A stretch of DNA of 64,000 nt from Flavobacteriia bacterium (GCA_947462925.1 CANHQP010000010.1:13664-77663), one strand, 5' to 3'; counted from the stretch's first letter, positions 25,527-56,631 are shown. Program-made: numbers and translations. Notes: generated by a model from the sequence alone, not told the origin.

Positions 25527-26048
25527 ATGAAAGTAATTTCAAAGGAAAAGTGGTATGTACTTCAAACTCGTTCGAGATTTGAGAAAAAGTCATTTGAATT
25601 ATTATCACTTCAAGGTGTTTCTGTTTTTTTACCAACACAGAAAGTGAAAAAAAATTGGAGCGATAGAATCAAAGAAATTGAAACCCCTTTATTTCCTGGT
25701 TATCTATTTATCCAATTTGAAGAAAAGGATAGATATAGAGTTTTAAATACAAGCGGAATTGTTCGTTTTGTTTCATTTGGAGGAAAATATGCCACTTTGG
25801 ATGAAAATCAAATCGAAATTTTTAGACAATTCGAAAGATTGGATACGGACATTCAAGTTATTGACCTTGAATTCTATATCGGTCAAGAAGTATTCATATC
25901 TTCTGGTCCATTTAAAGGACTTGAAGCCAAAATAGTTCAGTACAATGGGAAAGGAAAACTCTTACTTACAGTAGAAAGTATTGGAAAAGGAGTTTTGTTA
26001 GAAATTGGAAAAACAAAAATAGAAAATAAGAGTAATTTTTTAATTTAA
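25527..26048 (+). CDS. UpxY-family (NusG-like) transcription antiterminator heading the polysaccharide locus
   Basis: NGN domain start WYVLQTRSRFEKK, then PLFPGYLFI and a KOW motif (GQEVFISSGPFKGLEAKIV). It is the first gene of a long same-strand polysaccharide cluster. Confidence 0.85.
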   Translation: MKVISKEKWYVLQTRSRFEKKSFELLSLQGVSVFLPTQKVKKNWSDRIKEIETPLFPGYLFIQFEEKDRYRVLNTSGIVRFVSFGGKYATLDENQIEIFRQFERLDTDIQVIDLEFYIGQEVFISSGPFKGLEAKIVQYNGKGKLLLTVESIGKGVLLEIGKTKIENKSNFLI

Positions 26049-26170: not shown

Positions 26171-27172
26171 ATGGAAAAAAAATCTAAAATTCTTATAACA
26201 GGTGGAGCTGGATTCATAGGTTCAAATCTATGTGAGTATTTTGTTAATAATGGATATAGCGTTGTATGTTTAGATAATTTTGCAACGGGTTATAGACACA
26301 ATTTAAATTCAGTTATTGATGCTCCAAATTTTGAACTGATAGAAGGTGACATTAGAAATTTGGAAACATGCAGACTAGCTGTTAAAGACTGTGAATACGT
26401 TCTGCATCAAGCTGCCCTAGGCTCGGTTCCTAGATCGATAAATGATCCAATAACCACCAATGAAGTAAATATAAATGGTTTCTTAAATATGTTGGTTGCA
26501 AGTAGAGATGAAAACGTAAAAAGGTTCATTTATGCTGCAAGTTCTTCTACATATGGAGATTCTCAATCACTTCCAAAAGTAGAAGATATAATAGGTAAAC
26601 CGCAATCACCTTATGCTATCACTAAGTATGTAAACGAATTGTACGCTCAAAATTTTTCAAAATTATACCAAATGGAAACAATTGGTTTGAGATATTTTAA
26701 TGTATTTGGAAGACGACAAGATCCAAATGGTGCTTACGCTGCAGTTATACCAAAGTTTGTGATTCAACTAATTAATCATGAAAGTCCTGTAATCAATGGA
26801 AATATCGAATATTCTAGAGATTTCACGCACATAGATAATGTAATCGCAATGAATGAATTAGCGATTCAAACTAAAAATTCAGAAGCTCTCAATACGGTAT
26901 TTAATACTGCTTTTGGAGAAAGAACAACATTACTTGAGCTGGTGAATCTATTGAAAAGTGAACTTTCACAATTTGATTCTAAAATAAGCTCCATTGAAAC
27001 TATTATTGGTCCTAGTCGTATGGGAGATATTCCTCATTCAATTGCAAGCATTGATAAAGCTAAATTGTTACTTGGTTATATCCCCAAAACAAGTCTGAAA
27101 ATAGGAATTAGTAAAACAATACAATGGTATTGGGAAAATTTAAATCAAAAAATAGATAAAATTGTTTCCTAA
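26171..27172 (+). CDS. SDR-family UDP-N-acetylhexosamine(uronate) C4-epimerase (WbpP/TviC-like)
   Basis: Rossmann motif GGAGFIGSN and catalytic YAITKY. LRYFNVFGRRQDP and GDIPHS blocks are typical of the WbpP/TviC/CapD group. First ATG is 26171. Confidence 0.75.
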   Translation: MEKKSKILITGGAGFIGSNLCEYFVNNGYSVVCLDNFATGYRHNLNSVIDAPNFELIEGDIRNLETCRLAVKDCEYVLHQAALGSVPRSINDPITTNEVNINGFLNMLVASRDENVKRFIYAASSSTYGDSQSLPKVEDIIGKPQSPYAITKYVNELYAQNFSKLYQMETIGLRYFNVFGRRQDPNGAYAAVIPKFVIQLINHESPVINGNIEYSRDFTHIDNVIAMNELAIQTKNSEALNTVFNTAFGERTTLLELVNLLKSELSQFDSKISSIETIIGPSRMGDIPHSIASIDKAKLLLGYIPKTSLKIGISKTIQWYWENLNQKIDKIVS

Positions 27173-28817
27173 AATTAATCCAACATCAACAAAAGCTTGG
27201 TCGCTTTTAAAAAATCATCAAACTGATGAAATGTCTTCGACCTACATGAAAGATTTGTTTTCGAATGATATTTCTAGGTTTAATAAATTTCATGTTCAAC
27301 AAGAATCATTTTTATTTGATTTCTCTAAAAACATTATCAACGAAAGAACGATTGAGTTGTTATTAGAACTAGCTGAGGAATGTAAGTTGAAGGATGCAAT
27401 TTCCGCCATGTTTGACGGATCCAAAATCAATGAAACAGAAAATCGTGCTGTTTTTCATGTTGGCTTACGAGATTTTTCAGATAACAAATTTATTATTGAT
27501 GGAACTGAAGTAAAATCAGAAATAAATTCTGTTAGAAATAAAATCAAACATTTTTCAAATGATGTTCACGATGGAAAATGGTTAGGTTGCACTGGTGAGC
27601 GAATCAAAAATATCGTAAATATTGGTATCGGAGGAAGTGATTTAGGACCAAACATGGTCTGCGAAGCTTTGAAACCTTATTGGAAAAAGGAAATCAACAG
27701 CTTTTTTATTAGTAATGTAGATGGAACTAATTTGGTAGAGGTTCTCAAAGAACTGAATGCTGAAGAGACTTTATTTGTAGTTGCTTCTAAAACTTTTACC
27801 ACTCAGGAAACGATGACCAATGCAAATTCTGCTAGAGAATGGTTTCTATCCAAAATGGAGAATCCTGATTTTGTGGCCAAACATTTTGTTGCAATTAGTT
27901 CAAACGTGTCCAAAGCCATTGAATTTGGCATCAATGAAAATAACATTTTCGAAATGTGGGATTGGGTTTGCGGACGATTCAGTGTTTATGGAGCTATAGG
28001 ATTGACTGTTTCTCTTACAATTGGTTATGAAAACTTTGAACAATTTCTAAAAGGCGCAGAATCTGCAGATTTCCATTTCAAAAATAATAAATTCGAATCA
28101 AATATTCCCGTAATAATGGGCTTGTTAAGTATTTGGTACATCAATTTTTGGAACGCTAAAAGCGAAGTTATCCTCTGTTATGACCAATACTTACATAAGT
28201 TTGCTACATACATGCAACAAGGTTTTATGGAAAGCAATGGGAAATCTGTCGATCGAAATGGACAACAAGTTTCTTATTCAACAGGCATTCCAATTTGGGG
28301 TGAACCAGGAACGAATGGTCAACATAGTTTTCACCAAATGTTCCACCAAGGTACTTCGATGATTCCATGCGATTTTGTAGCACCGCTTAAAAGCCATAAT
28401 CCAATTGGAGATCATCACACGAAACTGTTGTCGAACTTTTTTGCTCAAAGTGAAGCTTTAATGGTGGGAAAAACGAAGGAAGTGGTAGTTGAAGAGTTAG
28501 TTCAAAAAGGATTTAATCAAAGTGAAATTGAAAAACTGGCTCCTTTCAAAATATTTGAAGGAAATAAACCAACTAATTCAATTTTAATTGATATCATTGA
28601 CCCTTTTAATTTAGGGAAATTGACAGTTTTTTACGAACATAAGATATTTGTACAAGGAATTATCTGGAATATTTTTAGCTTTGACCAATGGGGAGTAGAA
28701 TTAGGTAAAGAATTATCTACTTATATTTTACCCGAATTAAATAATGTTGATGAAACGAAAAACTTTAGTTCATCTACAAATGGATTAATAAATTACTTTA
28801 AACAAAATACGATTTAA
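27162..28817 (+). CDS. pgi: Glucose-6-phosphate isomerase
   Basis: 551 aa. The conserved N-terminus INPTSTKAWSLL forces the TTG start at 27162, giving an 11-nt overlap with the epimerase gene. Also GIGGSDLGP, FTTQET and GQHSFHQ blocks. Confidence 0.9.
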   Translation: MFPKINPTSTKAWSLLKNHQTDEMSSTYMKDLFSNDISRFNKFHVQQESFLFDFSKNIINERTIELLLELAEECKLKDAISAMFDGSKINETENRAVFHVGLRDFSDNKFIIDGTEVKSEINSVRNKIKHFSNDVHDGKWLGCTGERIKNIVNIGIGGSDLGPNMVCEALKPYWKKEINSFFISNVDGTNLVEVLKELNAEETLFVVASKTFTTQETMTNANSAREWFLSKMENPDFVAKHFVAISSNVSKAIEFGINENNIFEMWDWVCGRFSVYGAIGLTVSLTIGYENFEQFLKGAESADFHFKNNKFESNIPVIMGLLSIWYINFWNAKSEVILCYDQYLHKFATYMQQGFMESNGKSVDRNGQQVSYSTGIPIWGEPGTNGQHSFHQMFHQGTSMIPCDFVAPLKSHNPIGDHHTKLLSNFFAQSEALMVGKTKEVVVEELVQKGFNQSEIEKLAPFKIFEGNKPTNSILIDIIDPFNLGKLTVFYEHKIFVQGIIWNIFSFDQWGVELGKELSTYILPELNNVDETKNFSSSTNGLINYFKQNTI

Positions 28818-28818
28818 G

Positions 28819-30099
28819 ATGATGAATGATAAGATTGCAATTGTAGGACTGGGTTATGTTGGATTGCCATTAGCAAGGCTTTTAGCTACTAAATATCCAG
28901 TAATTGGTTTCGACATAAATCAAGGAAGAATTGCTGAACTAAATTCAGGACACGACGCAACTTTAGAAGTTGAAGATGATATTTTAAAAGCTGTTTTAAC
29001 AGGAACTCCCAAAATGGACAAAGGACTTTTTTGTAGTTCTAATTTGGAGGACATCAAGGATTCAAACTATTTTATTGTAACAGTCCCAACTCCTGTGGAT
29101 AAACACAATAAGCCAGATTTAACACCTCTATATAGAGCAAGTGAAACAGTTGGAAAAGTTTTGAAAAAAGGCGATATTGTCATCTATGAATCTACTGTTT
29201 ACCCAGGTGTAACGGAAGAAGAATGTGTTCCCGTTTTGGAAAAAGTAAGTGGATTAAAATTCAATGTTGATTTCTTCGCAGGATATTCTCCAGAAAGAAT
29301 CAATCCAGGTGATAAAGAACATACTGTTGAGAAGATATTAAAAGTTACCTCAGGTTCAACACCTGAAATTGGGCAGAAAGTAGATGCACTTTACAAAAGC
29401 GTTATCATTGCTGGAACTCACCTTGCTCCCACCATTAGAGTAGCCGAAGCAGCAAAAGTGATTGAAAACTCTCAAAGAGACATCAATATTGCATTTGTAA
29501 ATGAATTAGCTAAAATTTTCAATTTATTAGATATCAATACACACGATGTTTTGGCTGCTGCCGGAACAAAATGGAATTTCCTTCCTTTCAAGCCAGGATT
29601 AGTTGGTGGTCACTGCATTGGTGTTGACCCGTATTATCTAGCACAAAAAGCGCAAGAAAAAGGATACAATCCGGAAATCATTTTAGCAGGAAGAAGAATG
29701 AATGACGGAATGGGAGAATATGTTGCTTCTCAGGTTGTTAAATTGATGATTAAAAAAGGTATTTCTATCTTGGGTGCAGAGCTTTTAATGCTAGGAATTA
29801 CATTTAAAGAAAATTGCCCAGATGTTAGAAATACAAAAATTGTAGATGTAATAAATGCTCTTGTATCGTACGGAATTACTGTAAAAACATATGATCCCTG
29901 GGCTAATCCGGATGAGGTTAGGCATGAATATGGATTAGACACAACTACGGATATTCCAAATCAAAAATTTGATGCAGTTGTATTAGGAGTTTCTCATAAC
30001 GAATTTTTAAATCTCAATTTTGAAAATTTAGTAAACGAAATAAATGTCATTTATGATGTAAAAGGAATACTTAACATCCAAGTAGACGGAGTTTTATAA
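28819..30099 (+). CDS. UDP-N-acetylhexosamine 6-dehydrogenase (TviB/WbpO/Cap5O-like nucleotide-sugar dehydrogenase)
   Basis: NAD fold IAIVGLGYVGLPLA and catalytic-Cys block GLVGGHCIGVDPYY. 426 aa. Confidence 0.8.
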   Translation: MMNDKIAIVGLGYVGLPLARLLATKYPVIGFDINQGRIAELNSGHDATLEVEDDILKAVLTGTPKMDKGLFCSSNLEDIKDSNYFIVTVPTPVDKHNKPDLTPLYRASETVGKVLKKGDIVIYESTVYPGVTEEECVPVLEKVSGLKFNVDFFAGYSPERINPGDKEHTVEKILKVTSGSTPEIGQKVDALYKSVIIAGTHLAPTIRVAEAAKVIENSQRDINIAFVNELAKIFNLLDINTHDVLAAAGTKWNFLPFKPGLVGGHCIGVDPYYLAQKAQEKGYNPEIILAGRRMNDGMGEYVASQVVKLMIKKGISILGAELLMLGITFKENCPDVRNTKIVDVINALVSYGITVKTYDPWANPDEVRHEYGLDTTTDIPNQKFDAVVLGVSHNEFLNLNFENLVNEINVIYDVKGILNIQVDGVL

Positions 30100-30121
30100 T
30101 CAATCTTAAATTAATAATACA

Positions 30122-30478
30122 ATGAATTTCCAATTTATTGAGTCTGATAACAGACCTTGGGGAAGATATTTTGTTCTTCACGATGAGCCAAATTACAAGG
30201 TAAAAAGAATTGAAGTTGAGCCAAATCAAAGATTAAGTTATCAATACCATTTCAAAAGAGCTGAGGCATGGACTATCGTTCAAGGTGAAGCTACAGTAAC
30301 TCTTGATGGTGTAGATAAAATTTTTACAGTTGGAGAAACAGCAATTATCCCTCTAAGTGCTAAGCATAGGGTTGCAAATATGGGTACAGAACTGTTGATT
30401 TTTATTGAAGTTCAAACAGGTGATTATTTTGGTGAAGATGACATCGTTAGAATCGAGGATGATTACTCGAGAAAATAA
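30122..30478 (+). CDS. Stand-alone cupin resembling the C-terminal domain of type II phosphomannose isomerase
   Basis: 118 aa with RPWGRY, SYQYHFKRAEAWTIVQGEA and AKHRVAN blocks. Confidence 0.65.
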   Translation: MNFQFIESDNRPWGRYFVLHDEPNYKVKRIEVEPNQRLSYQYHFKRAEAWTIVQGEATVTLDGVDKIFTVGETAIIPLSAKHRVANMGTELLIFIEVQTGDYFGEDDIVRIEDDYSRK

Positions 30479-30501: not shown

Positions 30502-30930
30502 ATGAAACAATTTTCTAGAAAAAGACATATTGCTAAGACTTTCACTTGGAGAGCAGTTGGGACCATGGATACAATTCTGTTATCTTGGTTAGTATCTGGA
30601 GACTTGAAAATTGGAGCTGCAATTGGTGGTGCTGAAGTTTTTTCAAAGTTGCTTTTGTATTACCTTCATGAAAGGTTATGGTATAAAACAAATATTTTAA
30701 AATCAGTTTCTAGTAAATTAAGACACGCAATCAAAACGGTTTCCTGGAGAATTGTCGGTACATTAGATACGATGATGATGGGATGGATTGTATCCGGTAA
30801 TCCAATGACCGGTCTAAAAATTGGCGGATTAGAATTAGTAACAAAAATGGGGCTTTACTATCTTCATGAAAGGGTTTGGTATAGAAGTGATTACGGACTA
30901 ATTATTGAAACAAAAAATCAAAAAGAATAA
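30502..30930 (+). CDS. DUF2061-type small membrane protein (internally duplicated)
   Basis: Two ~60-aa repeats, each matching R-H-x-x-K-T-x-(T/S)-W-R-x-V-G-T-x-D-T ... YYLHER(L/V)WY(K/R). Each repeat has two hydrophobic segments. Confidence 0.65.
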   Translation: MKQFSRKRHIAKTFTWRAVGTMDTILLSWLVSGDLKIGAAIGGAEVFSKLLLYYLHERLWYKTNILKSVSSKLRHAIKTVSWRIVGTLDTMMMGWIVSGNPMTGLKIGGLELVTKMGLYYLHERVWYRSDYGLIIETKNQKE

Positions 30931-30945
30931 TAAATTGATTTCAAA

Positions 30946-31566
30946 ATGAAAATCGAAAATGATAATCCTAACAATGTTTACAATCAAAATTATTCGATTA
31001 GTAAGCTTAATAGGAATAAAAAAAACAATCATTCATCCTTGATGATTTTGTTTACAGGTTTATCCGGTTCAGGAAAATCTACAATAGCCAGTAAATTAGA
31101 ACAACATCTTCATTCACAAAATTTGCAGACTTACACCCTCGATGGCGACAATATGCGATTGGGTTTGAATAGCGACTTAGGATTTTCGCCAGAAGACCGA
31201 AATGAAAACCTAAGACGAATTGGTGAAGTGTCTAAACTGATGGTAGATGCAGGTTTGATTACACTCGCAGCATTTGTTTCACCATTAAAATCCGATCGGA
31301 AATTAATTGAAACAATTGTTGGTTCCGACAATTTCATAGAAATTTTCGTAAATACCTCATTAGAAGAGTGTGAACGGAGAGATGTTAAAGGACTGTATGC
31401 GAAAGCGAGAAAAGGTGAAATTCCAAACTTTACCGGTATTAGTTCACCTTATGAGGCACCTGAAAATCCTAGTTTAGAAATAAATACAGAAAATACTTCT
31501 GTCGAAAATGCGGTTGAAATTATTACCGAATATCTTAAAAATAAAATATCTTTGCACCATGAATAA
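30946..31566 (+). CDS. cysC: Adenylyl-sulfate (APS) kinase
   Basis: P-loop FTGLSGSGKSTIA, plus LDGDNMRLGLN and the FVSP motif. Confidence 0.9.
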   Translation: MKIENDNPNNVYNQNYSISKLNRNKKNNHSSLMILFTGLSGSGKSTIASKLEQHLHSQNLQTYTLDGDNMRLGLNSDLGFSPEDRNENLRRIGEVSKLMVDAGLITLAAFVSPLKSDRKLIETIVGSDNFIEIFVNTSLEECERRDVKGLYAKARKGEIPNFTGISSPYEAPENPSLEINTENTSVENAVEIITEYLKNKISLHHE

Positions 31567-32464
31567 ATATTATTTGAATTACTTAGACGAATTAGAGTCA
31601 GAAGCAATCTTCGTTCTAAGAGAAGTTGCAGCACAATTTGAAAATCCTGTAATTTTATTTTCAGGAGGAAAAGATTCAATTGTAGTTACATATTTAGCTC
31701 AAAAAGCTTTCTACCCTGCGAAAATGCCGTTCGCTTTGTTGCATGTTGACACGGGACATAACTTTCCCGAAACGATAGAATTTAGAGACAAATTGGTTAA
31801 TTCATTAGGTGTTCAACTATTGGTAGGTTCTGTGCAAGATTCTATTGATGATGGAAGAGTTGCTGAGGAAAAAGGCAAAAATGCATCTAGAAATGTATTG
31901 CAAATTACCACTTTGCTAGATACTGTTGAAAAATACAAAATCGATTGTGCGATTGGTGGCGGAAGAAGAGACGAAGAAAAAGCAAGAGCAAAAGAACGTT
32001 TTTTCTCACACAGAGATGAATTTGGACAATGGGATCCAAAAAATCAAAGACCTGAATTGTGGAATCTATTTAATGGAAAACAATTCAAAGGTGAACACTT
32101 TAGAGCATTCCCTATTTCAAACTGGACAGAAATGGATGTTTGGAATTACATCAATCGTGAGCAATTAGCTATACCTTCTTTATATTTTGCGCACGAAAGA
32201 GAAGTAATTTGGAGAGATGATGCTTGGATTCCACTTTCAGAACACATCAAGCTTGATGCAAATGAAATAGTTTCTACTAAAAGAATCAGATTTAGAACTT
32301 TAGGTGATATTACAATTACAGGAGGTATCGAATCTGACGCAGATACATTAGAAAAAATTGTTGATGAAGTTAGTACAATGAGATTAACTGAAAGAGGAAA
32401 TAGATCTGATGATAAAAGATCTGAAAGCGCTATGGAAGATAGAAAACGCGAAGGATATTTTTAA
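31559..32464 (+). CDS. cysD: Sulfate adenylyltransferase subunit 2
   Basis: PP-loop FSGGKDS and blocks LHVDTGHNFPE, GGRRDEEKARAKERFFS, MRLTERG. ATG 31559 overlaps the cysC stop by 8 nt. Confidence 0.9.
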   Translation: MNKYYLNYLDELESEAIFVLREVAAQFENPVILFSGGKDSIVVTYLAQKAFYPAKMPFALLHVDTGHNFPETIEFRDKLVNSLGVQLLVGSVQDSIDDGRVAEEKGKNASRNVLQITTLLDTVEKYKIDCAIGGGRRDEEKARAKERFFSHRDEFGQWDPKNQRPELWNLFNGKQFKGEHFRAFPISNWTEMDVWNYINREQLAIPSLYFAHEREVIWRDDAWIPLSEHIKLDANEIVSTKRIRFRTLGDITITGGIESDADTLEKIVDEVSTMRLTERGNRSDDKRSESAMEDRKREGYF

Positions 32465-32492
32465 TTAATCAAATCATTGAAATAAAAAAATT

Positions 32493-33749
32493 ATGGAATT
32501 ACATAACAGTCAATTATTGCGTTTTACAACTGCAGGTAGTGTAGATGATGGTAAAAGTACGCTTATCGGAAGATTACTTTATGACTCAAAATCAATTTTT
32601 GAAGATCAACTTTCATCAATAGAAACAACTTCAAAGAAAAAAGGGCACGAAGGTGTCGACTTGGCTCTTTTTACCGATGGTTTGAGAGACGAACGTGAGC
32701 AAGGTATTACGATTGATGTTGCATACAGATATTTTACCACTCCAAAACGTAAATTTATCATTGCAGATACTCCTGGACACATCCAATATACCAGAAACAT
32801 GGTAACTGGAGCATCTACAGCGAATGCCGCAATCATTTTAATTGATGCTAGAAATGGTGTTATTGAACAAACAAAAAGACACTCTTTTATTGCATCTTTA
32901 CTTCAAATTCCACACATTATTGTTTGCGTAAACAAAATGGATTTAGTGGAATACAGTGAAAAAAGATTCAATGAAATCGTTGAAGAGTTTGAAGTAATCT
33001 CTTCAAAATTAATGATTAAAGACGTCCATTTTATTCCAATCAGTGCATTGGATGGAGACAACGTTGTTAATCGCTCTGAAAATATGCCTTGGTTCAGTGG
33101 TGCGCCAATGTTGCATACTTTAGAAACACTTCACATTAGCAGCGATATCAATAAAGTTGATGCTCGTTTCCCTGTTCAAACCGTTATTCGTCCGCAATCT
33201 GATGAACATAGAGACTACAGAGGTTATGCTGGTAGATTAGAAAGTGGAATTTTAAGAGTTGGTGACGACATTACAGTACTACCTTCAGGATTTACATCGA
33301 AAATCAAGTCAATTAATTGTTTCGAAACTAATTATCAAGAAGCATTTGCACCAATGTCTGTATCTATAACTTTAGAAAACGATATCGATATTAGCAGAGG
33401 TGATATGATTGTAAGATCAAATAATCAACCAACTTGTTCGCAAGAGTTTGATGTCATGATTTGTTGGTTAAATAACAATTCTGCACGTCCCGGAGCAAAA
33501 TATTCAATCAAGCATACGAGTAACGATCAAAAAGCAATTATCAAGGAAGTTGTTTACAAAATGGATATCAACGCCATTGAAAGAAATAACGAAGATAAAT
33601 CTATCAATATGAATGACATTTGTAGAGTTAAAATTAGAACTACAAAGCCATTAATGATTGACGAATATAGAGATAATCGTATGACTGGAAGTATCATTTT
33701 AGTTGATGATGCAACCAATGAAACAGTTGCCGCAGGGATGGTAATCTGA
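32493..33749 (+). CDS. cysN: Sulfate adenylyltransferase subunit 1 (GTPase)
   Basis: GTPase motifs G1 GSVDDGKST, G3 DTPGH and G4 NKMD. There is no fused APS-kinase domain. Confidence 0.9.
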   Translation: MELHNSQLLRFTTAGSVDDGKSTLIGRLLYDSKSIFEDQLSSIETTSKKKGHEGVDLALFTDGLRDEREQGITIDVAYRYFTTPKRKFIIADTPGHIQYTRNMVTGASTANAAIILIDARNGVIEQTKRHSFIASLLQIPHIIVCVNKMDLVEYSEKRFNEIVEEFEVISSKLMIKDVHFIPISALDGDNVVNRSENMPWFSGAPMLHTLETLHISSDINKVDARFPVQTVIRPQSDEHRDYRGYAGRLESGILRVGDDITVLPSGFTSKIKSINCFETNYQEAFAPMSVSITLENDIDISRGDMIVRSNNQPTCSQEFDVMICWLNNNSARPGAKYSIKHTSNDQKAIIKEVVYKMDINAIERNNEDKSINMNDICRVKIRTTKPLMIDEYRDNRMTGSIILVDDATNETVAAGMVI

Positions 33750-33773
33750 TAAATAAACAAATTATTTGAAAAA

Positions 33774-34568
33774 ATGTCAGATTTAAATTTACTAAAAATT
33801 GCGATAGCTGCCGCGCTTGAAGCTGGTGAAAAAATCATGGAAATCTACGAAACCGAAGATTTTGGTGTAGATTTTAAAAGTGACAATTCCCCACTAACAA
33901 AAGCTGATGTTGCTTCTCATAATATTATTGAAAGTCATTTACTTACAACAAATATCCCAATTTTATCTGAAGAAGGGAAAAATATTCCATACGAAGATAG
34001 AAAGGATTGGAAGCAACTTTGGATAGTTGACCCAATAGACGGAACAAAAGAATTTATCAAAAGAAATGGAGACTTCACAGTTAATATTGCTTTGATTGAA
34101 AATCAAATTCCCGTTTTAGGTGTGATCTATACTCCTGTTTTAAATGAGTTGTTTTTCTCAACAAAAGAAAGTGGTGCATTCAAAGTAATTACTACCTCTC
34201 ATTCAGATGATTTCCAGTATTTACAAACAAATGCTATAAAACTTCCAATTGAAACAATTAAAGAGGCTTTCACAGTCGTTGCCAGTAAATCTCACATGTC
34301 TGTCGAAACAGAAGACTATGTCAAGGAACTGGAAAAAACACACGGAAAGGTTGAATTGATTTCCAGAGGAAGTTCATTAAAACTTTGCATGGTGGCAGAA
34401 GGAAAAGCGGATTGTTATCCACGTTTTGCTCCTACAATGGAATGGGATACAGCGGCTGGACAAGCTATTTGCATGCATGCAGGTTTTGAGGTGATCGATT
34501 GGTCAACTCAAAAGCAAATGCTTTACAATAGAGAAAATTTATTAAATAATTGGTTCTTAGTAAGATGA
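33774..34568 (+). CDS. cysQ: 3'(2'),5'-bisphosphate nucleotidase (PAP phosphatase)
   Basis: Inositol-monophosphatase superfamily motifs: [24 protein letters not shown]. Confidence 0.85.
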
Positions 34569-35440
34569 AAGGTATAGTTTTAGCTGGTGGTTCAGGCACG
34601 CGTTTGTTTCCAATTACAAAAGGAGTTTCCAAACAGTTACTTCCGATTTATGATAAACCAATGATTTACTATCCAATATCAGTTTTGATGTTGGCTGGAA
34701 TTAGAGAAATACTTATTATTTCAACGCCACAAGATCTTCCAAATTTTGAAAAATTATTGGGTGATGGAAGTGATTTTGGAGTAAAGTTTAGCTACAAAGT
34801 ACAACCAAGTCCAGATGGATTGGCCCAAGCGTTTATCCTAGGTGAAGAATTTATTGGTTCGGATGATGTTTGTCTTGTATTAGGAGATAATATTTTCTAT
34901 GGACACGGACTGACAGAACTTTTAAAATCAGCTAAATCAAATGTAATCGATAAAGGAAATGCGACGGTATTTGGCTATTATGTAAATGATCCTGAACGAT
35001 ATGGTGTTGCTGAATTTGATAATACTGGTAAAGTAGTTTCTATCGAAGAAAAGCCGCTTTCGCCAAAATCAAATTACGCTGTTGTAGGTTTGTATTTTTA
35101 TCCAAATGAAGTGATTGAAATCGCAAAATCAATCAAACCTTCTGAACGTGGAGAACTTGAAATTACGACAGTAAATGAAGTGTTTCTCTCAAAAGAAAAT
35201 TTAAAGGTTGAATTGATGGGACGAGGATACGCTTGGTTAGATACAGGAACACATGATTCTTTAATTGAAGCAAGTAGTTTTATTCAAACAATTGAAAAAC
35301 GTCAAGGTTTGAAAGTGGCTTGTTTAGAGGAAATTGCTTTCGATCAAGGATTTATTTCAAAGGAAAAAGTTTTGGACCTTGCAAAACCGCTTGCTAAAAC
35401 TGGTTACGGTCAATATTTAATTAAAAAAGTTTCAAAGTGA
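34565..35440 (+). CDS. rfbA: Glucose-1-phosphate thymidylyltransferase
   Basis: [18 protein letters not shown] and YDKPMIYYP blocks. ATG 34565 forms an ATGA overlap with the cysQ stop. Confidence 0.95.
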
Positions 35441-35985
35441 ATATAACAGAAACAAATATTGACGGTTTGGTTATCATTGAACCAAAGGTTTTTGGCGATG
35501 CTCGCGGATATTTCATGGAAACATTCCAAAAAAATACATTTAATTCAAACGTAACAGAAACTGAATTCATTCAAGACAATGAATCGAAATCCTCCAAAGG
35601 AGTTTTAAGAGGTTTACATTTTCAACTTCCACCCTATCAGCAAGCAAAATTGGTTAGGGTTATTGAAGGCGAAGTATTGGATGTTGCCGTAGATTTGAGA
35701 AAAGATTCAAAAACCTATGGTAAACATTATTCGATTTTGTTGTCAGGCGAAAATAAAAAGCAATTTTTTGTTCCAAGAGGATTTGCACATGGATTTGTTG
35801 TTTTAAGTGAAACTGCTATTTTCAGTTATAAAGTCGACAATCTATATGCTCCGACGCATGATTCTGGCATTCTGTGGAATGACGAAACATTGAACATTGA
35901 TTGGAATATCGATAGTGCATTGATCCAACTTTCTGAAAAAGACAAAAATTTAAGTTCATTTAAAGACTTTAATAGTCCATTTTAA
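35437..35985 (+). CDS. rfbC: dTDP-4-dehydrorhamnose 3,5-epimerase
   Basis: [18 protein letters not shown] and PRGFAHGF blocks. GTG start in a GTGA overlap with rfbA. Confidence 0.9.
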
Positions 35986-35986
35986 A

Positions 35987-36859
35987 ATGAAAATATTAGT
36001 AACGGGAAAAAATGGTCAATTAGGATCTGAAATCAATTCGTTGGTTACCAATTATCCTCAGCACCATTTTCATTTTACTGGATCTAGTGAATTCAATCTT
36101 TCTAGTAAAGAATCGATGAGTTCATTTTTAAGTAATTACCAGTTCGATTTAATTATCAATTGTGCTGCATACACAGCTGTTGATAAAGCAGAAGACGACT
36201 CTGAAATGGCTGAAATGGTAAATGTTGAAGGAGTTCATTTTTTAGCCGAATATTGCGCTGAAAAGAACATCAAAATCATCCATATTTCAACAGATTATGT
36301 TTTTGATGGTTCCAAAAACACGCCCTATATCGAAAGCGACATTACAAACCCAACAGGAGTTTACGGTGAAACAAAGCGAAAAGGAGAAATCGAATTAATA
36401 AACAGCCGAGCAAATAGCATTATCATCAGAACTTCTTGGGTTTATTCAACTTTTGGAAATAACTTTGTAAAAACGATGTTGAAACTTGGCTCTGAAAGAG
36501 AGAGTTTAAACGTTGTTATAGATCAAATTGGAACGCCAACATATGCCAAAGATTTGGCTAATATATGTTTGACAATTGCCAATCAAATCGACAATTGGAA
36601 ATCTGGTTGTACAATTTATCACTATTCAAATGAAGGCGTGACGAGTTGGTACGACTTTGCACACCAGATCATGTCTTTAGCTAAATTGAAATGTAAGGTC
36701 TCCCCTATTGAAACTTATGAATATCCTACCAAAGCAAAAAGGCCACACTTTTCAGTTTTGAACAAAAACAAAATCCGTACAGATTTCAATTTGGAAATTC
36801 CTAATTGGAAGGAATCATTGCAAAAAATGTTACTAGCAAGTTCTAGGAATCTTAGATAG
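35987..36859 (+). CDS. rfbD: dTDP-4-dehydrorhamnose reductase
   Basis: MKILVTGKNGQLG, NCAAYTAVDKAE, STDYVFDG and YGETKRKGE blocks. Confidence 0.9.
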   Translation: MKILVTGKNGQLGSEINSLVTNYPQHHFHFTGSSEFNLSSKESMSSFLSNYQFDLIINCAAYTAVDKAEDDSEMAEMVNVEGVHFLAEYCAEKNIKIIHISTDYVFDGSKNTPYIESDITNPTGVYGETKRKGEIELINSRANSIIIRTSWVYSTFGNNFVKTMLKLGSERESLNVVIDQIGTPTYAKDLANICLTIANQIDNWKSGCTIYHYSNEGVTSWYDFAHQIMSLAKLKCKVSPIETYEYPTKAKRPHFSVLNKNKIRTDFNLEIPNWKESLQKMLLASSRNLR

Positions 36860-36870
36860 GTATAAAATAA

Positions 36871-38133
36871 ATGAATTTATCTAACATCATAAAGAAACTA
36901 TCAGGACCTGTAATATTTAATATACTTGGTTCATTATTTGGAATTTTATCTACGATAATAATTAGTCGATATTATGGTTCAGAAAAACTAGGAACAATAA
37001 GTTTAAGTTTAAAAATAACCCAAATCTTAATGGTGGTTTCATTATTTGGATTTAGAGAACAAATTATCAAAAACATTTCCATCTACTTAAAAGAAAATGA
37101 TTCACATAGTGCCTCAAACCTTGTGAGTAATATAAAATTCTTTTCTAGAATTAGCTCACTCATTATTACAGCAATAGTTTTAGTCATCCTTTATTTTTTC
37201 TCTATTCTTTTCGACAAAGATAAAAACTTTGTGCCATTCATGCAGATTTTTATCTTTTCACTTGTTTTTATTGTTCAAACAAAGAATAACACTTTTATAC
37301 TTATCTCTATGGGTAAATATAAAAAAAGTGTACTATTTGATGGATTTTATAATACTTTGTTTCTGTTGGTTTTACTACTAATTGTGATACTTTTAAAAAT
37401 TAATGTAACAATTGAAATTTTAGCTGTTGTATATTTTTTGTCTAGAATATTCAATTATGTGACATCGATATACTTATTTCGCAGAAACCCGTTTTTTAAA
37501 AAAATAAAAAATAGGGATTTTTCGTATATTAAAAATGGAAAAGATTTTTTTGCTATTTCTGTTATTAACACATTAATTGCAAATATAGACTTGGTAATTA
37601 TTGGCATCATTTTAAATCCAAAACTAGTTGCTATTTATGCAGTATGTTCTCGAATCTCACAAATTCTTGAACTTGTAACATATGTCCTATCGACTGCGAT
37701 TTCACCCGAGATTGCGACGCTATTTCATGACAAAAATTTTACTCAATTAAAACATGTTATTTTAAAATACATGTCTTTTTCTTTTTTAATTGCGTCTATT
37801 TTTTGTTTGTCTAGTTTGTTCTTAAGTTCTACACTATTAAATCTCTGGGGTGATGATTTTTCAAATTATTCTAAAGAATTAACAATAATGATTATTGCAA
37901 CTTCAATTGGATTCGTTTTTTCTCCCTATGCCAACTTCTTGTCCATGACTGGTCATCAAAAAGTGGAACTCAGGTTAAATTTTATCATTTCAATTATTTT
38001 TATTTTGATATTATTATTTTTAACCATTAACTTTGGATTAATTGGAAGTGCATTAGCTTTTCTTGTTAGAATTTTTTCAATAAATTTTTCAAGATTTTAT
38101 TTTTCGAAACAAATATTAAAAGAGACTATATGA
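36871..38133 (+). CDS. wzx: Wzx-type oligosaccharide flippase (MOP superfamily)
   Basis: 420 aa with ~12 predicted TM helices, placed inside a Wzy-type locus. No strongly conserved motif is expected for this family. Confidence 0.65.
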   Translation: MNLSNIIKKLSGPVIFNILGSLFGILSTIIISRYYGSEKLGTISLSLKITQILMVVSLFGFREQIIKNISIYLKENDSHSASNLVSNIKFFSRISSLIITAIVLVILYFFSILFDKDKNFVPFMQIFIFSLVFIVQTKNNTFILISMGKYKKSVLFDGFYNTLFLLVLLLIVILLKINVTIEILAVVYFLSRIFNYVTSIYLFRRNPFFKKIKNRDFSYIKNGKDFFAISVINTLIANIDLVIIGIILNPKLVAIYAVCSRISQILELVTYVLSTAISPEIATLFHDKNFTQLKHVILKYMSFSFLIASIFCLSSLFLSSTLLNLWGDDFSNYSKELTIMIIATSIGFVFSPYANFLSMTGHQKVELRLNFIISIIFILILLFLTINFGLIGSALAFLVRIFSINFSRFYFSKQILKETI

Positions 38134-38900
38134 TAATCAGTCATAAACACAAATACATCTTCGTTGGAATTCCTTTTTCCGCATCGTCTACGATTTCAAA
38201 AGAATTGCTCGAAAATTATGACGGAGAATTCATTTTAAACAAACACACCAATATACCTACGCTACTTAACGAATTTAAAGGTAATATCAACGAATATTTC
38301 GTTTTTGGAATATACAGATCTCCAATAGAGATAATAAAATCTAGGTATAATAAACTTCGAAACAATCCTGAAAATAGATTTTCAGATGAAAAATTTGCAC
38401 GAAAAAATGGTGGATATGTTTCAGAAAAGTCAAGAAAATTTTCAAAACTAATACGGGAGAACGATTTGACTTTTTTAGAGTATCTAAAATTAAATTATAA
38501 GTTGCTTCCCTACAATAATGAATTTACGATAAATGCACCGTATTTAAATTTTATATTAGATTTTAATAATCTTGAAAATGATTTTGAGTTAGTTCTAAGA
38601 AAAATAGGATTAAAAATGGCAACAAATCTCGACAAGACAAATTCCACCAAAAAACGAAGTGACATAGATTATAATGTTCCTGAATCTATTATTTCTAAAT
38701 ATTTTGCTCCCTTTCTAAAATATAATTCAAAGTATATTCCTCATTATTCTGAGCCAAAAGTCAATTACTTTTTTTATTTAGTTTTCCTATTAACAAATAA
38801 AATGCGTGCAAAAAGGACTTTAAGTGCTGATAAATATAGAACACTAAAAAATGACCTACACTTCTCTGAAAATAAGTTTTTAAGGAATAAAATAAAATAA
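38130..38900 (+). CDS. Divergent sulfotransferase-like protein (Sulfotransfer_2-like; PAPS-loop lysine missing)
   Basis: KYIFVGIPFSASSTISKEL aligns by eye with the 5'-PSB loop (IPKTGGTS), but Lys is replaced by Phe. FGIYRSPIEIIKSRY resembles the 3'-PB motif RxPxxRxxSxY. ATGA overlap with wzx. Confidence 0.4.
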   Translation: MIISHKHKYIFVGIPFSASSTISKELLENYDGEFILNKHTNIPTLLNEFKGNINEYFVFGIYRSPIEIIKSRYNKLRNNPENRFSDEKFARKNGGYVSEKSRKFSKLIRENDLTFLEYLKLNYKLLPYNNEFTINAPYLNFILDFNNLENDFELVLRKIGLKMATNLDKTNSTKKRSDIDYNVPESIISKYFAPFLKYNSKYIPHYSEPKVNYFFYLVFLLTNKMRAKRTLSADKYRTLKNDLHFSENKFLRNKIK

Positions 38901-39219
38901 TCATTTTTATGCGAAATCATCAAATTTACTTTTGGATTTGTTTGTGCGTCTGCTCTTTTTTATTAGTGCGCAAATTGTTTACGATTAAATTTTCAATTAT
39001 AAAATATATTTCGTCAGCACTAATACTATTTATTTATCGTCTTTTTTACGTCATTTAAAGACAAATCAGCTATTTTCAATCTGACATTATTCTTATTGTG
39101 CCTTTCAATTATTTCTATTGTTTATCCAAATTCAATTAAAAGCTCAAATAAACGGCCGAAAAATATATGAGAAAGCGTTTATGTAAAATATTGAAAGCAA
39201 ATTCTAATATAAAATTGAT

Positions 39220-40131
39220 ATGACAGAAAAAAGTTTTAAAGATAAAACATTAATTTTAGTTGTTGGTGTTCACAAAGCTGCAACAACTTCCTTTTATGAA
39301 TACCTTACAAATCAAGAAGAAATATTTACTCCTAGCATTAAGGAACTACATTTTTTCACACCATTGGTTTACAATTCTAATGTGGAGTTAAACATCAATA
39401 AATATTTAAAATATTTTGAGAACACAACGAAAAAACATATACTCGATGTAAGTCCGTCTTATTTTTATGGCGGAAACGTAATAATAGATGAAATAAGAAA
39501 GTATACCGACCGAGTTAAAATTGTTCTCATTTTGCGTGATCCTACCGAAAGATTTATATCTTTTTACAAACAAGGAATAAAAACGGGTAGAATAAAGAAC
39601 AAAATGTCACTTTCTGCTTATTTCGAGCAATGCAAAATCGAGCATTCCAAATACTTGGAAAATAAAATTCACTATGACACATTTACCAACAGAGGGTTGC
39701 GAGAAGGATGTTATTCTCTCTACATTAATGAATGGTTAACGAATTTCAAAGAAAATCTACATATAATATTTTTTGAAGATTTAGTTAAGGATAGTAAAGA
39801 AGAAATGGATATTTTTGCTGAATCAGCAAATCTGAAATTGAATTTAAATCAAGTTTCTTTTGAAGCAGTAAATGTATCAAGAAAACCAAGAAGTCAATTT
39901 TTGGGAAAAATAAAATCAAAATTATTTAGACAAAATGAATCCTTTTTAAGAAAAAATAAAAAATTGAAAGACTTCTTGAAAAAATTGTACAATTCAATTA
40001 ATACCACTGAATATAAAAAAGAAGCATACATAGAAGAAAAATTGAAAATTTCTGAGTTTTATGAACAATATAATAAGAAATTAGTAAATATATTAACTAA
40101 TAAAGCTGAAAAAATTAAAAAATGGAAATAA
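39220..40131 (+). CDS. PAPS-dependent sulfotransferase
   Basis: 5'-PSB loop LILVVGVHKAATTSFYEYL and 3'-PB motif LILRDPTERFISFY. No signal peptide or TM segment seen. Confidence 0.7.
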   Translation: MTEKSFKDKTLILVVGVHKAATTSFYEYLTNQEEIFTPSIKELHFFTPLVYNSNVELNINKYLKYFENTTKKHILDVSPSYFYGGNVIIDEIRKYTDRVKIVLILRDPTERFISFYKQGIKTGRIKNKMSLSAYFEQCKIEHSKYLENKIHYDTFTNRGLREGCYSLYINEWLTNFKENLHIIFFEDLVKDSKEEMDIFAESANLKLNLNQVSFEAVNVSRKPRSQFLGKIKSKLFRQNESFLRKNKKLKDFLKKLYNSINTTEYKKEAYIEEKLKISEFYEQYNKKLVNILTNKAEKIKKWK

Positions 40132-41500: not shown

Positions 41501-42374
41501 ACCGAATCTCTTCATTGTCGGCGCACCAAAATCAGGAACTACCTTTTTGTATAACAAATTGCAAATATTTAGTGAATTTTATTTTACTGAAATAAAAGAA
41601 TTAAACTATTTTTCATATGATGAAATAGCAGAATCAAAATCTTACTACAATGATTACAAAGTAAAAGAAATAGAACGGTACTTAAATTTCTTTAAAAATG
41701 CTGATAAACAAAAATATAAAGTAGATACAAGTGTTTCCTATTTTTCATATCCTAGGACAGCAAATAGAATTTTTGAATTCAATCCTGAATCGAAAATTAT
41801 TGCTATATTGAGAAATCCTATTAAAAGGGCATTTTCGCACTACCAAATGGATGTTAGAATGGGGCATGCAAAACACTCTTTCAAAAATTATATTGAAGAC
41901 AAAAATGAACATCAAGCTCATTACCATCAATATATTACAAACAGTTTATATCATAGTAATATTTCTAGATATATCGAAAAATTTGGAACCAAAAACGTTT
42001 TAGTACTAATATTAGAAGAAATAGAAGTGGAATTGCCAAAGTTGTTTGATTTTTTGAATATCGAAAATAGCTCATCTGAAATTGACACAGGAGATAAAAT
42101 TAATGTTAATAAGAAACCTAAAAATTTTATTTCGAAATTTTTTCAAAATAATCGCAGATTAGCAGAGAAATTGAAAAAATATACTCCAGAATATTTGGTC
42201 AATTTTTACAAAAAATATTTTTATGAAAATGCAGAAATAATTACAATAACTGATGAAGAATATGAAATTTGCAGAAAACTACTTTCTAAAGAAGTAGATG
42301 AATTATCCACCTTATTAAACAAAAATTTATCGAACTTATGGCTGATGAATTTACCTCAAAAAAACAAAAATTAA
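41481..42374 (+). CDS. PAPS-dependent sulfotransferase (canonical motifs)
   Basis: 5'-PSB loop LFIVGAPKSGTTFLYNKL and 3'-PB motif AILRNPIKRAFSHYQM. 20-nt overlap with wzy. No signal peptide. Confidence 0.8.
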   Translation: MSQLQIKPNLFIVGAPKSGTTFLYNKLQIFSEFYFTEIKELNYFSYDEIAESKSYYNDYKVKEIERYLNFFKNADKQKYKVDTSVSYFSYPRTANRIFEFNPESKIIAILRNPIKRAFSHYQMDVRMGHAKHSFKNYIEDKNEHQAHYHQYITNSLYHSNISRYIEKFGTKNVLVLILEEIEVELPKLFDFLNIENSSSEIDTGDKINVNKKPKNFISKFFQNNRRLAEKLKKYTPEYLVNFYKKYFYENAEIITITDEEYEICRKLLSKEVDELSTLLNKNLSNLWLMNLPQKNKN

Positions 42375-43492: not shown

Positions 43493-43571
43493 AATTATAT
43501 TAAGTGTAACTCGCCTGATAAATGAAAATCAATGAAGAGTTTTGAAATCTATACTTAAAAATAAATTACAG

Positions 43572-45993: not shown

Positions 45994-46107
45994 TTACTTC
46001 TCTGCCGAATCAAACAGAGCAGCTTCAATATTGAATTAATAAAATTGAATTAACATAAACAAACGAATTTTTCAATAATTTTACAAATAATTTCTACAAT
46101 TAATTAT

Positions 46108-47287: not shown

Positions 47288-47311
47288 CCATTTTTAAAAC
47301 AAGTCATCTAC

Positions 47312-48094: not shown

Positions 48095-48096
48095 GA

Positions 48097-56629: not shown

Positions 56630-56631
56630 TC

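Follow-up and report, generated by a model that had tools for sequence, protein, structure and literature searches.

A sulfate-activation module in a capsule-type operon of an uncultured Crocinitomicaceae bacterium, a likely PAPS supply for polysaccharide sulfation

In Bacteroides, capsule loci headed by an UpxY gene are long one-strand operons in which the 5' genes are conserved and the glycosyltransferase region varies, and to our knowledge no PAPS genes have been described as part of them; in E. coli, cysQ is unlinked to cysDNC. The placing of PAPS genes within polysaccharide clusters is already documented in other marine bacteria. The capsule cluster of Cobetia marina KMM 1449 contains cysN/C, cysD, cysQ, a sulfate permease and a sulfotransferase, and Rha-2-sulfate has been proven chemically (PMC11766843). 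A cluster of Vibrio sp. KMM 8419 holds second copies of cysC, cysN and cysD together with three sulfotransferases and rml genes, and its authors regard the combination of PAPS genes with sulfotransferases as a hallmark of clusters for sulfated polysaccharides (PMC11641403). Closer in taxonomy, Kordia antarctica (Flavobacteriaceae) has two cysND sets, and the cysC-linked one is additional to a cysND-cysH-sir assimilatory cluster (PMC7477175).

The locus described here lies in a 64-kb stretch of DNA (the window), in which essentially every ORF of 100 aa or more was searched against Pfam or NCBIfam. It occupies 25527-50478 and comprises 24 genes on one strand, from an UpxY antiterminator to Wzc, with the following features (scores are given against the model cutoff).

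25527-26048, +: UpxY-family (NusG-like) antiterminator, first gene (NF033644, 124.2 against 100; Pfam NusG and KOW)
26171-30478, +: nucleotide-sugar supply genes (NCBIfam and Pfam best matches; gaps of -11 to +22 nt)
30502-30930, +: DUF2061 protein, 142 aa, two repeats (PF09834, E 6.7e-42)
30946-31566, +: cysC, APS kinase, APS to PAPS (TIGR00455, 239.7 bits against 138.7)
31559-32464, +: cysD, ATP sulfurylase small subunit (NF009214, 423.3 against an equivalog cutoff of 413)
32493-33749, +: cysN, ATP sulfurylase GTPase subunit (NF003478, 592.9 against an equivalog cutoff of 590)
33774-34568, +: cysQ, 3'(2'),5'-bisphosphate nucleotidase, removes PAP (TIGR01331, 271.4 against 228.8)
34565-36859, +: rmlA, rmlC and rmlD, dTDP-L-rhamnose supply (TIGR01207, TIGR01221 and TIGR01214, all above cutoff)
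36871-38133, +: wzx-type flippase, opening the low-GC variable half (Pfam Polysacc_synt and MatE)
38130-38900, +: 256-aa protein with no assigned family (no Pfam hit)
39220-40131, +: sulfotransferase 1 (PF00685, 35.4 bits against a gathering score of 22)
40295-41500, +: probable wzy-type repeat-unit polymerase (PF04932 Wzy_C, 28.2 bits, under the cutoff of 31.7)
41481-42374, +: sulfotransferase 2 (PF00685, 43.4 against 22; PF13469, 44.2 against 27)
42338-47232, +: GT4 glycosyltransferase, 459-aa protein, rhamnosyltransferase and phosphoglycosyltransferase (Pfam and NCBIfam)
47285-50478, +: Wza-type outer-membrane exporter and Wzc-type chain-length regulator/tyrosine kinase, at the operon end

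Thus cysD, cysN, cysC and sulfotransferases, the set expected of a sulfated-polysaccharide cluster with or without cysQ, are all found within 25527-50478, here with cysQ and together with wzx, wzy, glycosyltransferase, wza and wzc genes. The locus resembles that of Cobetia marina in having a PAPS module in a capsule cluster with rml genes and a sulfotransferase (PMC11766843). However, Cobetia marina is a gammaproteobacterium with export by an ABC transporter (Kps) instead of the Wzx/Wzy of the window, and without UpxY; its CysN and CysC are fused, whereas CysN here stands alone without a kinase domain, and a conventional sulfate permease, absent from the window, is present where the window has DUF2061. 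The Vibrio cluster likewise groups cysC, cysN and cysD with sulfotransferases and rml genes in a polysaccharide cluster, but it belongs to another phylum, comprises 80 genes with Kps-type export, and cysQ is not reported in it. The rhizobial nodP-nodQ-nodH genes are similar in providing a dedicated extra cysD/cysN-C copy beside its own sulfotransferase (bioRxiv 10.1101/2022.04.26.489235), and differ in their lipochitooligosaccharide acceptor (Nod factor), in the lack of cysQ and in being plasmid-borne. On a plasmid of Mesorhizobium huakuii 583 a DUF2061 gene is found directly upstream of cysD, coding for a single repeat of 77 aa as against two repeats in the window. Kordia antarctica, as a member of the Flavobacteriales with a cysC-linked cysND, also resembles the window; there, however, the second cysND and cysC lie beside an NRPS cluster and were read by the authors as completing assimilation (PMC7477175). 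E. coli has the same four enzyme families (CysD, CysN and CysC are 46%, 50% and 51% identical to those of the window), but its cysDNC serves assimilation via CysH and CysIJ under CysB control, with no sulfotransferase. As in the Bacteroides UpxY loci, the first gene encodes an UpxY-family NusG paralogue (NF033644), whereas no upxZ was recognised in the window and Wza/Wzc are at the 3' end of the operon.

The profile searches upheld the gene calls and identities of the sequence-only reading, an earlier description of this DNA, which had placed DUF2061, cysC, cysD, cysN and cysQ at 30502-34568. Motif checks found the P-loop of CysC (GLSGSGKS), the SGGKDS motif of CysD at residue 35 (PAPS_reduct/ATP-PPase fold) and the G1, G3 and G4 motifs of CysN (GSVDDGKS for GxxxxGKS, DTPG and NKMD) to be intact, and all five genes are under purifying selection (dN/dS 0.02-0.07). 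Upstream, the nucleotide-sugar genes encode a TviC-like UDP-GlcNAcA 4-epimerase, a glucose-6-phosphate isomerase (PGI), a TviB-like UDP-GlcNAc 6-dehydrogenase and a 118-aa mannose-6-P-isomerase-type cupin; the TviB and TviC matches score below their equivalog cutoffs, so the substrates named are putative. In the downstream genes, the 459-aa protein has a weak GH20-like match, the rhamnosyltransferase is Cps2T-like and the initiating phosphoglycosyltransferase WecA-like; Wza was assigned from Pfam Poly_export and SLBB, and Wzc from Wzz, GNVR and AAA_31.

The cys genes are tightly coupled to the sugar genes on both sides. Two overlaps, one of 8 nt between cysC and cysD (ATGAATAA, 31559-31566) and a shared ATGA between cysQ and rmlA (34565-34568), were read directly from the sequence, as they had been described before (with rmlA as rfbA). 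The gaps between the cupin gene and DUF2061, between DUF2061 and cysC, and between cysD and cysN are 23, 15 and 28 nt, and the 13 consecutive junctions from the tviC-like gene to the gene after wzx range from -11 to +28 nt. No convincing terminator on the + strand was found within 24.3-41 kb. Between the cys-containing block and the first sulfotransferase gene lies a gap of 319 nt (38901-39219), and so more than one transcript is possible. The operon-like packing, the synteny and its conservation are direct observations; from gene order alone, co-transcription under UpxY would be expected.

Two relatives were compared with the window, a 3.9-Mb chromosome (OZ260085.1, 90% nucleotide identity) and a metagenome-assembled genome (EUL_059, 83%). 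Both are colinear with the window up to the end of rmlD (colinearity ends at 36850) and divergent beyond. The conserved 5' half common to all three includes the cys genes and ends with the rml genes; at wzx the GC content drops from 0.34 to 0.26. The variable halves of the two relatives differ, yet each encodes Pfam-confirmed sulfotransferases. In OZ260085.1, a 53% identical homologue annotated Wzy_C occupies the position of our wzy candidate.

We also compared CysD loci with 10-kb flanks, namely the closest 80 of at least 593 matches in Bacteroidota genomes. Cassettes of the cysC-cysD-cysN type were found in all of these best 80, with cysC in 76/80, cysN in 74/80 and cysQ in 66/80. Of the best 80, 64 have one or more polysaccharide gene families in their 10-kb flanks, and 49 have two or more. 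A sulfotransferase-like ORF was found within 10 kb in 19 of them, a lower bound given that the sulfotransferase genes of the window are themselves 7.7-9.9 kb from cysD, near the flank limit. Annotation pipelines label such genes 'sulfate assimilation', and they might be ordinary assimilation genes that lie among sugar genes by chance, with the sulfotransferases unrelated to them. We consider this extremely unlikely, given that sugar genes abut or overlap the cys genes at either end, that the relatives keep them at this position in their capsule loci and always have sulfotransferases in the variable halves, and that the association with polysaccharide genes recurs across the phylum with cysQ co-located in most of the best 80 of at least 593 loci.

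Neither profile searches nor tblastn detected cysH, cysI, cysJ or a sulfate transporter in the 64 kb, in agreement with the absence of cysH, cysI, cysJ, sulfite reductase and sulfate permease claimed earlier. Using E. coli CysH, CysI and CysJ and an SLC13-type permease as tblastn queries, only the expected weak family match of CysH to CysD was obtained in the window, and the same CysH, CysI and CysJ queries detected cysH, cysI and cysJ in Microvirga loci as a positive control. There were no SulP, SLC13, CysZ or CysPTWA homologues in the window, and no sulfur genes in the next 10 kb past its right end on the metagenome contig from which it comes. The only ABC importer in the 64 kb (54064-57597, -) is PstSCAB, which is for phosphate and not for sulfate. 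Across the window and the best 80 of at least 593 loci, no CysH was linked to cysDN (E. coli CysH matches CysD itself) and no CysIJ or Sir was linked; cysH, cysI and cysJ were found in 0/80 of these loci within the 10-kb flanks.

The sequence-only reading had called a separate APS kinase and a PAP phosphatase necessary when sulfotransferases consume PAPS. This does not discriminate, because E. coli-type assimilation through PAPS reductase needs both too. Since E. coli uses cysC and cysQ in this way and its cysDNC lies about 11 kb from cysJIH, gene content and the local absence of cysH are, taken by themselves, weak evidence. The module could therefore have a dual use, as the sole cysDN and cysC of the genome, with cysH and a sulfite reductase elsewhere drawing on the same PAPS pool for cysteine while the capsule draws on it as well. 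PAPS is a common intermediate in E. coli-type assimilation, where cysDNC is apart from cysJIH; the nearest genome, JBBALI01, gives one cysD locus among the best 80 of at least 593, although a divergent second copy could rank lower; and the clearly assimilatory cysH-cysD-cysN-DUF2061 of Microvirga, beside cysJI, also links DUF2061 to cysDN. However, dual use would tie essential cysteine synthesis to a capsule operon headed by an antiterminator, no cassette among the best 80 of at least 593 has a linked cysH, cysI or cysJ, and Kordia keeps its assimilatory genes in a distinct cysND-cysH-sir set without cysC, the cysC-linked cysND being extra (PMC7477175). On balance we find dual use rather doubtful, and favour a PAPS supply for the capsule locus. 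The sequence-only reading had further suggested that the module is dedicated to the capsule and that the genome may carry a second, assimilatory copy elsewhere; for such a pair of separate cysND sets, Kordia offers a precedent in the Flavobacteriaceae (PMC7477175).

Both sulfotransferase genes are surrounded by those for Wzx, Wzy and glycosyltransferases, and the gene for sulfotransferase 2 shares 20 nt with wzy and 37 nt with the GT4 gene. Sulfotransferase 1 has the 5'-PSB loop HKAATT, in which the Lys and Thr-Thr of PKxGTT are kept while Pro is replaced by His and Gly by Ala, and the 3'-PB motif RDPTERFIS; its top PDB match is heparan sulfate 3-O-sulfotransferase 5 (E 8e-11). Sulfotransferase 2 has PKSGTT and RNPIKRAFS (pattern R[DN]PxxRxxS), and its top PDB match is the bacterial sulfotransferase 3rnl (E 5.7e-24), followed by NDST and 3-OST. 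Neither has a signal peptide, and both are predicted to be cytoplasmic PAPS-type enzymes with intact PAPS-binding motifs. These two genes had been left out of the evidence given earlier for the PAPS finding. The protein encoded at 38130-38900 has distant homologues carrying PF03567 or PF00685, and the Foldseek top matches of its AF2 model (pLDDT 88.6) are nearly all sulfotransferases, but weak (best E 0.04); its 5'-PSB Lys is replaced by Phe. It is possibly a divergent third sulfotransferase-like protein.

Bacterial sulfotransferase acceptors are diverse (PMC13449962), and the similarity of these enzymes to those of heparan sulfate is low (E 1e-7 to 1e-11). Their PAPS might be used on acceptors other than polysaccharides, for example lipids, small metabolites or tyrosines in proteins, as happens in Bacteroides steroid sulfation, the mycobacterial sulfolipid pathway and RaxST. 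This seems very unlikely to us, as both genes are intermingled with those for Wzx, Wzy and glycosyltransferases, as are the sulfotransferase genes of OZ260085.1, and the best solved relatives beyond 3rnl are carbohydrate sulfotransferases.

We therefore think it highly likely that the five genes provide the sulfate donor within an operon for a Wzx/Wzy-dependent capsule or exopolysaccharide. This is because two PAPS-type sulfotransferases are in the same operon; because the cys genes lie in the conserved half while the exchanged variable halves again carry sulfotransferases; because cysC-cysD-cysN, with or without cysQ and DUF2061, recur in the company of polysaccharide genes and, in the best 80 of at least 593 loci, never next to cysH, cysI or cysJ; and because chemically validated precedents exist (PMC11766843, PMC11641403). 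The earlier proposal of a PAPS supply for the capsule locus, as opposed to a cysteine-biosynthesis cluster, is thus supported, while the UpxY control that it included is a prediction from gene order. The support is mainly evidence absent from that proposal.

Judging from the encoded functions, this uncultured member of the Crocinitomicaceae very probably produces a sulfated capsule. CysD and CysN would convert sulfate and ATP to APS, which CysC would phosphorylate to PAPS. The two or possibly three cytoplasmic sulfotransferases, whose genes lie about 5-8 kb downstream, would then sulfate the undecaprenyl-linked repeat unit before Wzx flips it, and CysQ would convert the inhibitory by-product PAP to AMP. 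The repeat unit may consist of a WecA-type primer, rhamnose (RmlACD) and probably a 2-acetamido-uronic acid (TviB/TviC-like enzymes), and Wzy, Wzc and Wza would polymerise and export the sulfated polymer. The acceptor sugar, sulfation ahead of flipping and a truly sulfated polymer are what we infer. Placed like rml in the conserved 'precursor' half, the cys genes could serve whichever sulfotransferases the exchangeable, serotype-specific half carries.

The newest lead at the locus is DUF2061. The AF2 model of this protein (pLDDT 82) has four long helices, and no fold match to it was found in the PDB. Its gene is conserved against OZ260085.1 (dN/dS 0.044), occurs in at least 41 related cassettes among the best 80 of at least 593, and adjoins cysDN in Mesorhizobium, Microvirga and Gemmatirosa, accompanying cysDN in three phyla. 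DUF2061 is thus a conserved companion of cysC/cysDN, and in 11 related cassettes among these best 80 an SLC13-like permease is found at the slot that DUF2061 holds in the window.

Five contiguous plus-strand genes, identified by the ORF map and by profile searches, make up the sulfate-activation module:

30502-30930, plus strand, DUF2061 (PF09834), two repeats
30946-31566, plus strand, cysC, above the NCBI curated cutoff, P-loop intact
31559-32464, plus strand, cysD, above the NCBI curated cutoff, SGGKDS motif intact
32493-33749, plus strand, cysN, above the NCBI curated cutoff, G1, G3 and G4 motifs intact
33774-34568, plus strand, cysQ, above the NCBI curated cutoff

The 8 nt ATGAATAA are common to cysC and cysD, ATGA is common to cysQ and rmlA, and the spacing is 23 nt between the cupin gene and DUF2061 and 15 nt between DUF2061 and cysC. 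A mechanical ORF list puts the cysD start at 31508 and the rmlA start at 34550 (TTG); the starts at 31559 and 34565 are favoured by profile alignments, by the overlaps and by the gene calls of the public contig, a 124-kb metagenome contig (ENA ERZ27263776 k141_698911) of which the window is part. The ORF map, profile searches and overlaps together bear out the five-gene block and junctions described in the sequence-only reading.

The module is contained in an operon-like block of 24 genes on one strand (25527-50478), which reads in order as follows:

UpxY-family antiterminator (NusG-like), the first gene, NF033644 above cutoff
TviC-like epimerase, glucose-6-phosphate isomerase (27162-28817), TviB-like dehydrogenase, small cupin (30122-30478)
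DUF2061, cysC, cysD, cysN, cysQ
rmlA, rmlC, rmlD (34565-36859)
wzx, 256-aa protein (38130-38900)
sulfotransferase 1 (39220-40131), wzy, sulfotransferase 2 (41481-42374)
GT4 glycosyltransferase, 459-aa protein (43542-44921), Cps2T-like rhamnosyltransferase, WecA-like primer transferase
wza and wzc, ending the locus

From the tviC-like gene to the gene after wzx, 13 consecutive junctions have gaps of only -11 to +28 nt. In this otherwise tightly packed operon a 319-nt non-coding gap (38901-39219) lies directly upstream of sulfotransferase 1, and it could hold an internal promoter or be the remnant of a lost gene. A scan for sigma-70 promoters and terminators gave matches no commoner than in shuffled sequence, with a consensus that is not that of Bacteroidota, whose promoters differ from sigma-70. 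TAnnTTTG motifs are present upstream of upxY, upstream of the tviC-like gene and in the 319-nt gap, and are uninformative because 60 occur in the window.

Several of the sugar genes deserve mention in their own right. The glucose-6-phosphate isomerase between the TviC-like and TviB-like genes is full-length (NF001211, 769 bits), and for the stand-alone cupin of 118 aa the match is confined to the C-terminal part of mannose-6-phosphate isomerase/GMP enzymes. Although rmlA, rmlC and rmlD are present, rmlB (dTDP-glucose 4,6-dehydratase) was not recognised in the 64 kb, and the sole other SDR in the locus has TviC as its best match. The 459-aa protein, encoded between two glycosyltransferase genes, gave only a weak match to the GH20 catalytic domain (E 9e-6), a glycoside-hydrolase-like gene sitting within a biosynthetic operon.

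The nearest genomes are the Crocinitomicaceae MAG EUL_059 (L004) and the 3.9-Mb chromosome OZ260085.1 (L086). Nucleotide colinearity with both, at 83% and 90% identity respectively, stops exactly at 36850, the end of rmlD. Here, at a sharp boundary (36850-36871), the relatives diverge, and the GC content is about 0.34 before it and about 0.26 after it. The locus is thus laid out in the classical way, with one half that is conserved and supplies precursors and another that is serotype-specific and exchangeable, and the boundary marks the start of an exchangeable cassette running from wzx to wzc. The cys genes are part of the conserved half, and between the window and L086 all five module genes, DUF2061 included, have dN/dS values of 0.02-0.07. 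Pfam-confirmed sulfotransferases are found in all three variable halves (window, L086 and L004).

The pair of sulfotransferases is the decisive addition to the evidence available from the sequence-only reading. Both are above the Pfam gathering scores and lack a signal peptide. The 5'-phosphosulfate-binding loop is HKAATT in sulfotransferase 1 and PKSGTT in sulfotransferase 2, and the 3'-phosphate-binding motif is RDPTERFIS and RNPIKRAFS, respectively. Among solved structures they come closest to a bacterial sulfotransferase (3rnl, E 5.7e-24) and to heparan sulfate N- and 3-O-sulfotransferases. The 256-aa protein has no Pfam match, but its AlphaFold model (pLDDT 88.6) gave top Foldseek matches that are almost all PAP-bound sulfotransferases, weak ones at E values of at least 0.04. 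It has a Phe in place of the 5'-phosphosulfate-binding lysine, and neither hhalign against the two sulfotransferases nor a profile search of PDB sequences was significant. A homologue, 44% identical, adjoins a sulfotransferase in L004. The locus may thus encode a third sulfotransferase-like protein, of divergent sequence.

The best-supported reading of the module is that it supplies PAPS, the activated sulfate donor, to the sulfotransferases of a Wzx/Wzy-exported polymer. PAPS would be made by CysDN and CysC, the lipid-linked repeat unit would be decorated by the cytoplasmic sulfotransferases before flipping, the by-product PAP would be removed by CysQ, and the polymer would be assembled and exported by Wzx, Wzy, Wzc and Wza. 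We infer co-transcription, dependence on UpxY, the acceptor sugar and sulfate in the polymer. The earlier proposal of a dedicated PAPS supply under capsule control, rather than a part of cysteine biosynthesis, is supported with caveats; the module may be exclusive to the capsule, and it is the operon context that discriminates. Its premise that cysC together with cysQ indicates sulfotransferase use does not discriminate, because assimilation through PAPS reductase also needs both.

Assimilation would call for reduction genes, and their reported absence from the 64 kb held up. Neither profile searches (Pfam or NCBIfam) of essentially every window ORF of at least 100 aa nor tblastn against the window, with E. 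coli CysH, CysI and CysJ and an SLC13-type permease as queries, revealed a cysH gene, a sulfite reductase or any transporter for sulfate. Sulfur genes were not found in 10 kb more of the source contig to the right of the window. The sole ABC importer in the window (54064-57597, minus strand) was considered as CysPTWA and rejected, being PstSCAB. In the region 54064-58950 (minus strand) this phosphate operon, which could be misread as a sulfate ABC transporter, is preceded by a gene whose 443-aa porin-like product matches Alginate_exp weakly. An Rrf2 regulator (63180-63587) was likewise rejected as the CymR-like head of an assimilatory cluster on the basis of its neighbours, a TonB-dependent receptor, DUF6526 and glutamate dehydrogenase.

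Related loci were surveyed among GTDB species representatives, using 10-kb flanks. The CysD proteins of the 80 best loci (of at least 593) are 68-99% identical to that of the window, and these loci span Flavobacteriales, Cytophagales, Chitinophagales, Sphingobacteriales and Bacteroidales.

Gene content of the 80 best loci of at least 593 CysD matches
cysC-cysD-cysN-type cassette: 80 of 80
cysC: 76 of 80
cysN: 74 of 80
cysQ: 66 of 80
DUF2061: at least 41 of 80
one or more families of polysaccharide genes within 10 kb: 64 of 80
two or more families of polysaccharide genes within 10 kb: 49 of 80
sulfotransferase-like ORF within 10 kb: 19 of 80, a lower bound because the sulfotransferases of the window lie 7.7-9.9 kb from cysD
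cysH, cysI or cysJ in the 10-kb flanks: 0 of 80, in E. coli cysDNC and cysJIH being about 11 kb apart and so beyond such flanks

As a control, the same E. coli queries detected cysH, cysI and cysJ in Microvirga loci, and their sensitivity is therefore adequate. The window's CysD shares only 46% identity with the E. coli protein and so belongs to a Bacteroidota-specific clade; among the matches listed in a CysD protein search all were at least 82% identical, that is, close homologues only.

A second, assimilatory cysDN elsewhere in the genome would have a precedent in the Flavobacteriaceae, by analogy with Kordia, where there is a cysND-cysH-sir cluster without cysC and, in K. antarctica, an additional copy of cysND in a cysC cluster of its own (PMC7477175).

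The concept of PAPS genes inside sulfated-capsule clusters, and in nodPQ, is already known, and the rhizobial nodPQ-nodH system is the classical dedicated PAPS supply. In Cobetia marina KMM 1449 the capsule cluster has cysN/C, cysD, cysQ, a sulfate permease, rml genes and a sulfotransferase, and its product contains Rha-2-sulfate (PMC11766843). In Vibrio sp. KMM 8419 the capsule cluster carries a second set of cysC, cysN and cysD along with three sulfotransferases, a combination of PAPS genes and sulfotransferases that its authors termed a hallmark of sulfated-polysaccharide clusters (PMC11641403). The window differs from these systems in its phylum, its Wzx/Wzy-type assembly, the UpxY head and the unfused CysN and CysC, and it has DUF2061 instead of a recognisable permease, the equivalent module of Cobetia including a sulfate permease. 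A literature search found no paper on such a cassette in Bacteroidota capsule loci. As a type the arrangement is ordinary, but it is well documented here.

The locus predicts a sulfated-polysaccharide coat in an uncultured freshwater or marine Crocinitomicaceae lineage, and judging by the related cassettes many Flavobacteriales, Cytophagales and Chitinophagales may have such a coat too. Work on Bacteroidota has dealt mostly with their breakdown of sulfated algal glycans. Should production of sulfated glycans also be widespread among them, this would affect the reading of sulfated-polysaccharide pools in the sea, of phage receptors and of particle stickiness, and would offer compact PAPS-plus-sulfotransferase cassettes for glycoengineering. 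In MAG metabolic reconstructions, a cysDNC/cysQ set is not in itself a reason to score 'assimilatory sulfate reduction'.

Of the module's parts, DUF2061 is the one least understood, and it is a lead worth following. A literature search found no paper on its function. The window's protein has two repeats of about 50 residues with invariant K, WR, DT, E, K, YY and HER-W positions, and its AlphaFold model (pLDDT 82) has four helices of 27-28 residues in two hairpins; no PDB fold matched this model significantly. Its dN/dS of 0.044 (window versus L086) indicates purifying selection. There are two repeats in Bacteroidota and one in alphaproteobacteria and Gemmatimonadota. At least 41 of the 80 best Bacteroidota cassettes (of at least 593) have the gene immediately 5' of cysC. 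An SLC13/DASS-like permease (591 aa; CitMHS, two TrkA_C and Na_sulph_symp domains) is near cysC in 11 other cassettes (L011, L053, L055, L057, L068, L071, L073, L074, L076, L081 and L082), in 10 of the 11 on the same strand and immediately upstream, which is the slot of DUF2061. The two were found together in none of the 80 best loci (of at least 593), an exclusivity that is only suggestive because it follows taxonomy.

DUF2061 adjoins cysD/cysN in three phyla (L087 and L090-L093), the contexts outside Bacteroidota coming from tblastn of plasmids:

Mesorhizobium: nodH-DUF2061-cysD-cysNC
Microvirga: DUF2061 after cysD-cysN; on two replicons, assimilatory cysH-cysD-cysN-DUF2061 beside cysJI
Gemmatirosa: cysQ-DUF2061-cysC-cysD

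The DUF2061 gene within the Mesorhizobium nod locus has also been noted in a bioRxiv paper (10.1101/2022.04.26.489235). In Bradyrhizobium, Chondrinema, Photobacterium and three haloarchaea the same plasmid search found DUF2061 without cys linkage, and the Caulobacter gene, which is iron-/Fur-regulated (PMC3751524), is not cys-linked. Such unlinked genes speak against one function for the whole Pfam family. A subset of DUF2061 proteins is thus linked to sulfate activation as a whole and not to sulfation in particular. That DUF2061 is an unrecognised sulfate-activation component, a small helical-hairpin membrane protein importing sulfate or tethering or feeding CysDN at the membrane, is a tentative but testable idea which we consider rather unlikely. 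In its favour stand the adjacency to cys genes in and outside Bacteroidota, the slot shared with the SLC13-type permease, the permease of the Cobetia module, the purifying selection and a predicted fold for which no relative has been solved. In Salegentibacter agarivorans (L047) two complete cys cassettes stand in tandem within 13 kb, in the order cysQ-cysC-cysD-cysN, epimerase, dehydrogenase, cysQ-DUF2061-cysC-cysD-cysN, with DUF2061 in one cassette only.
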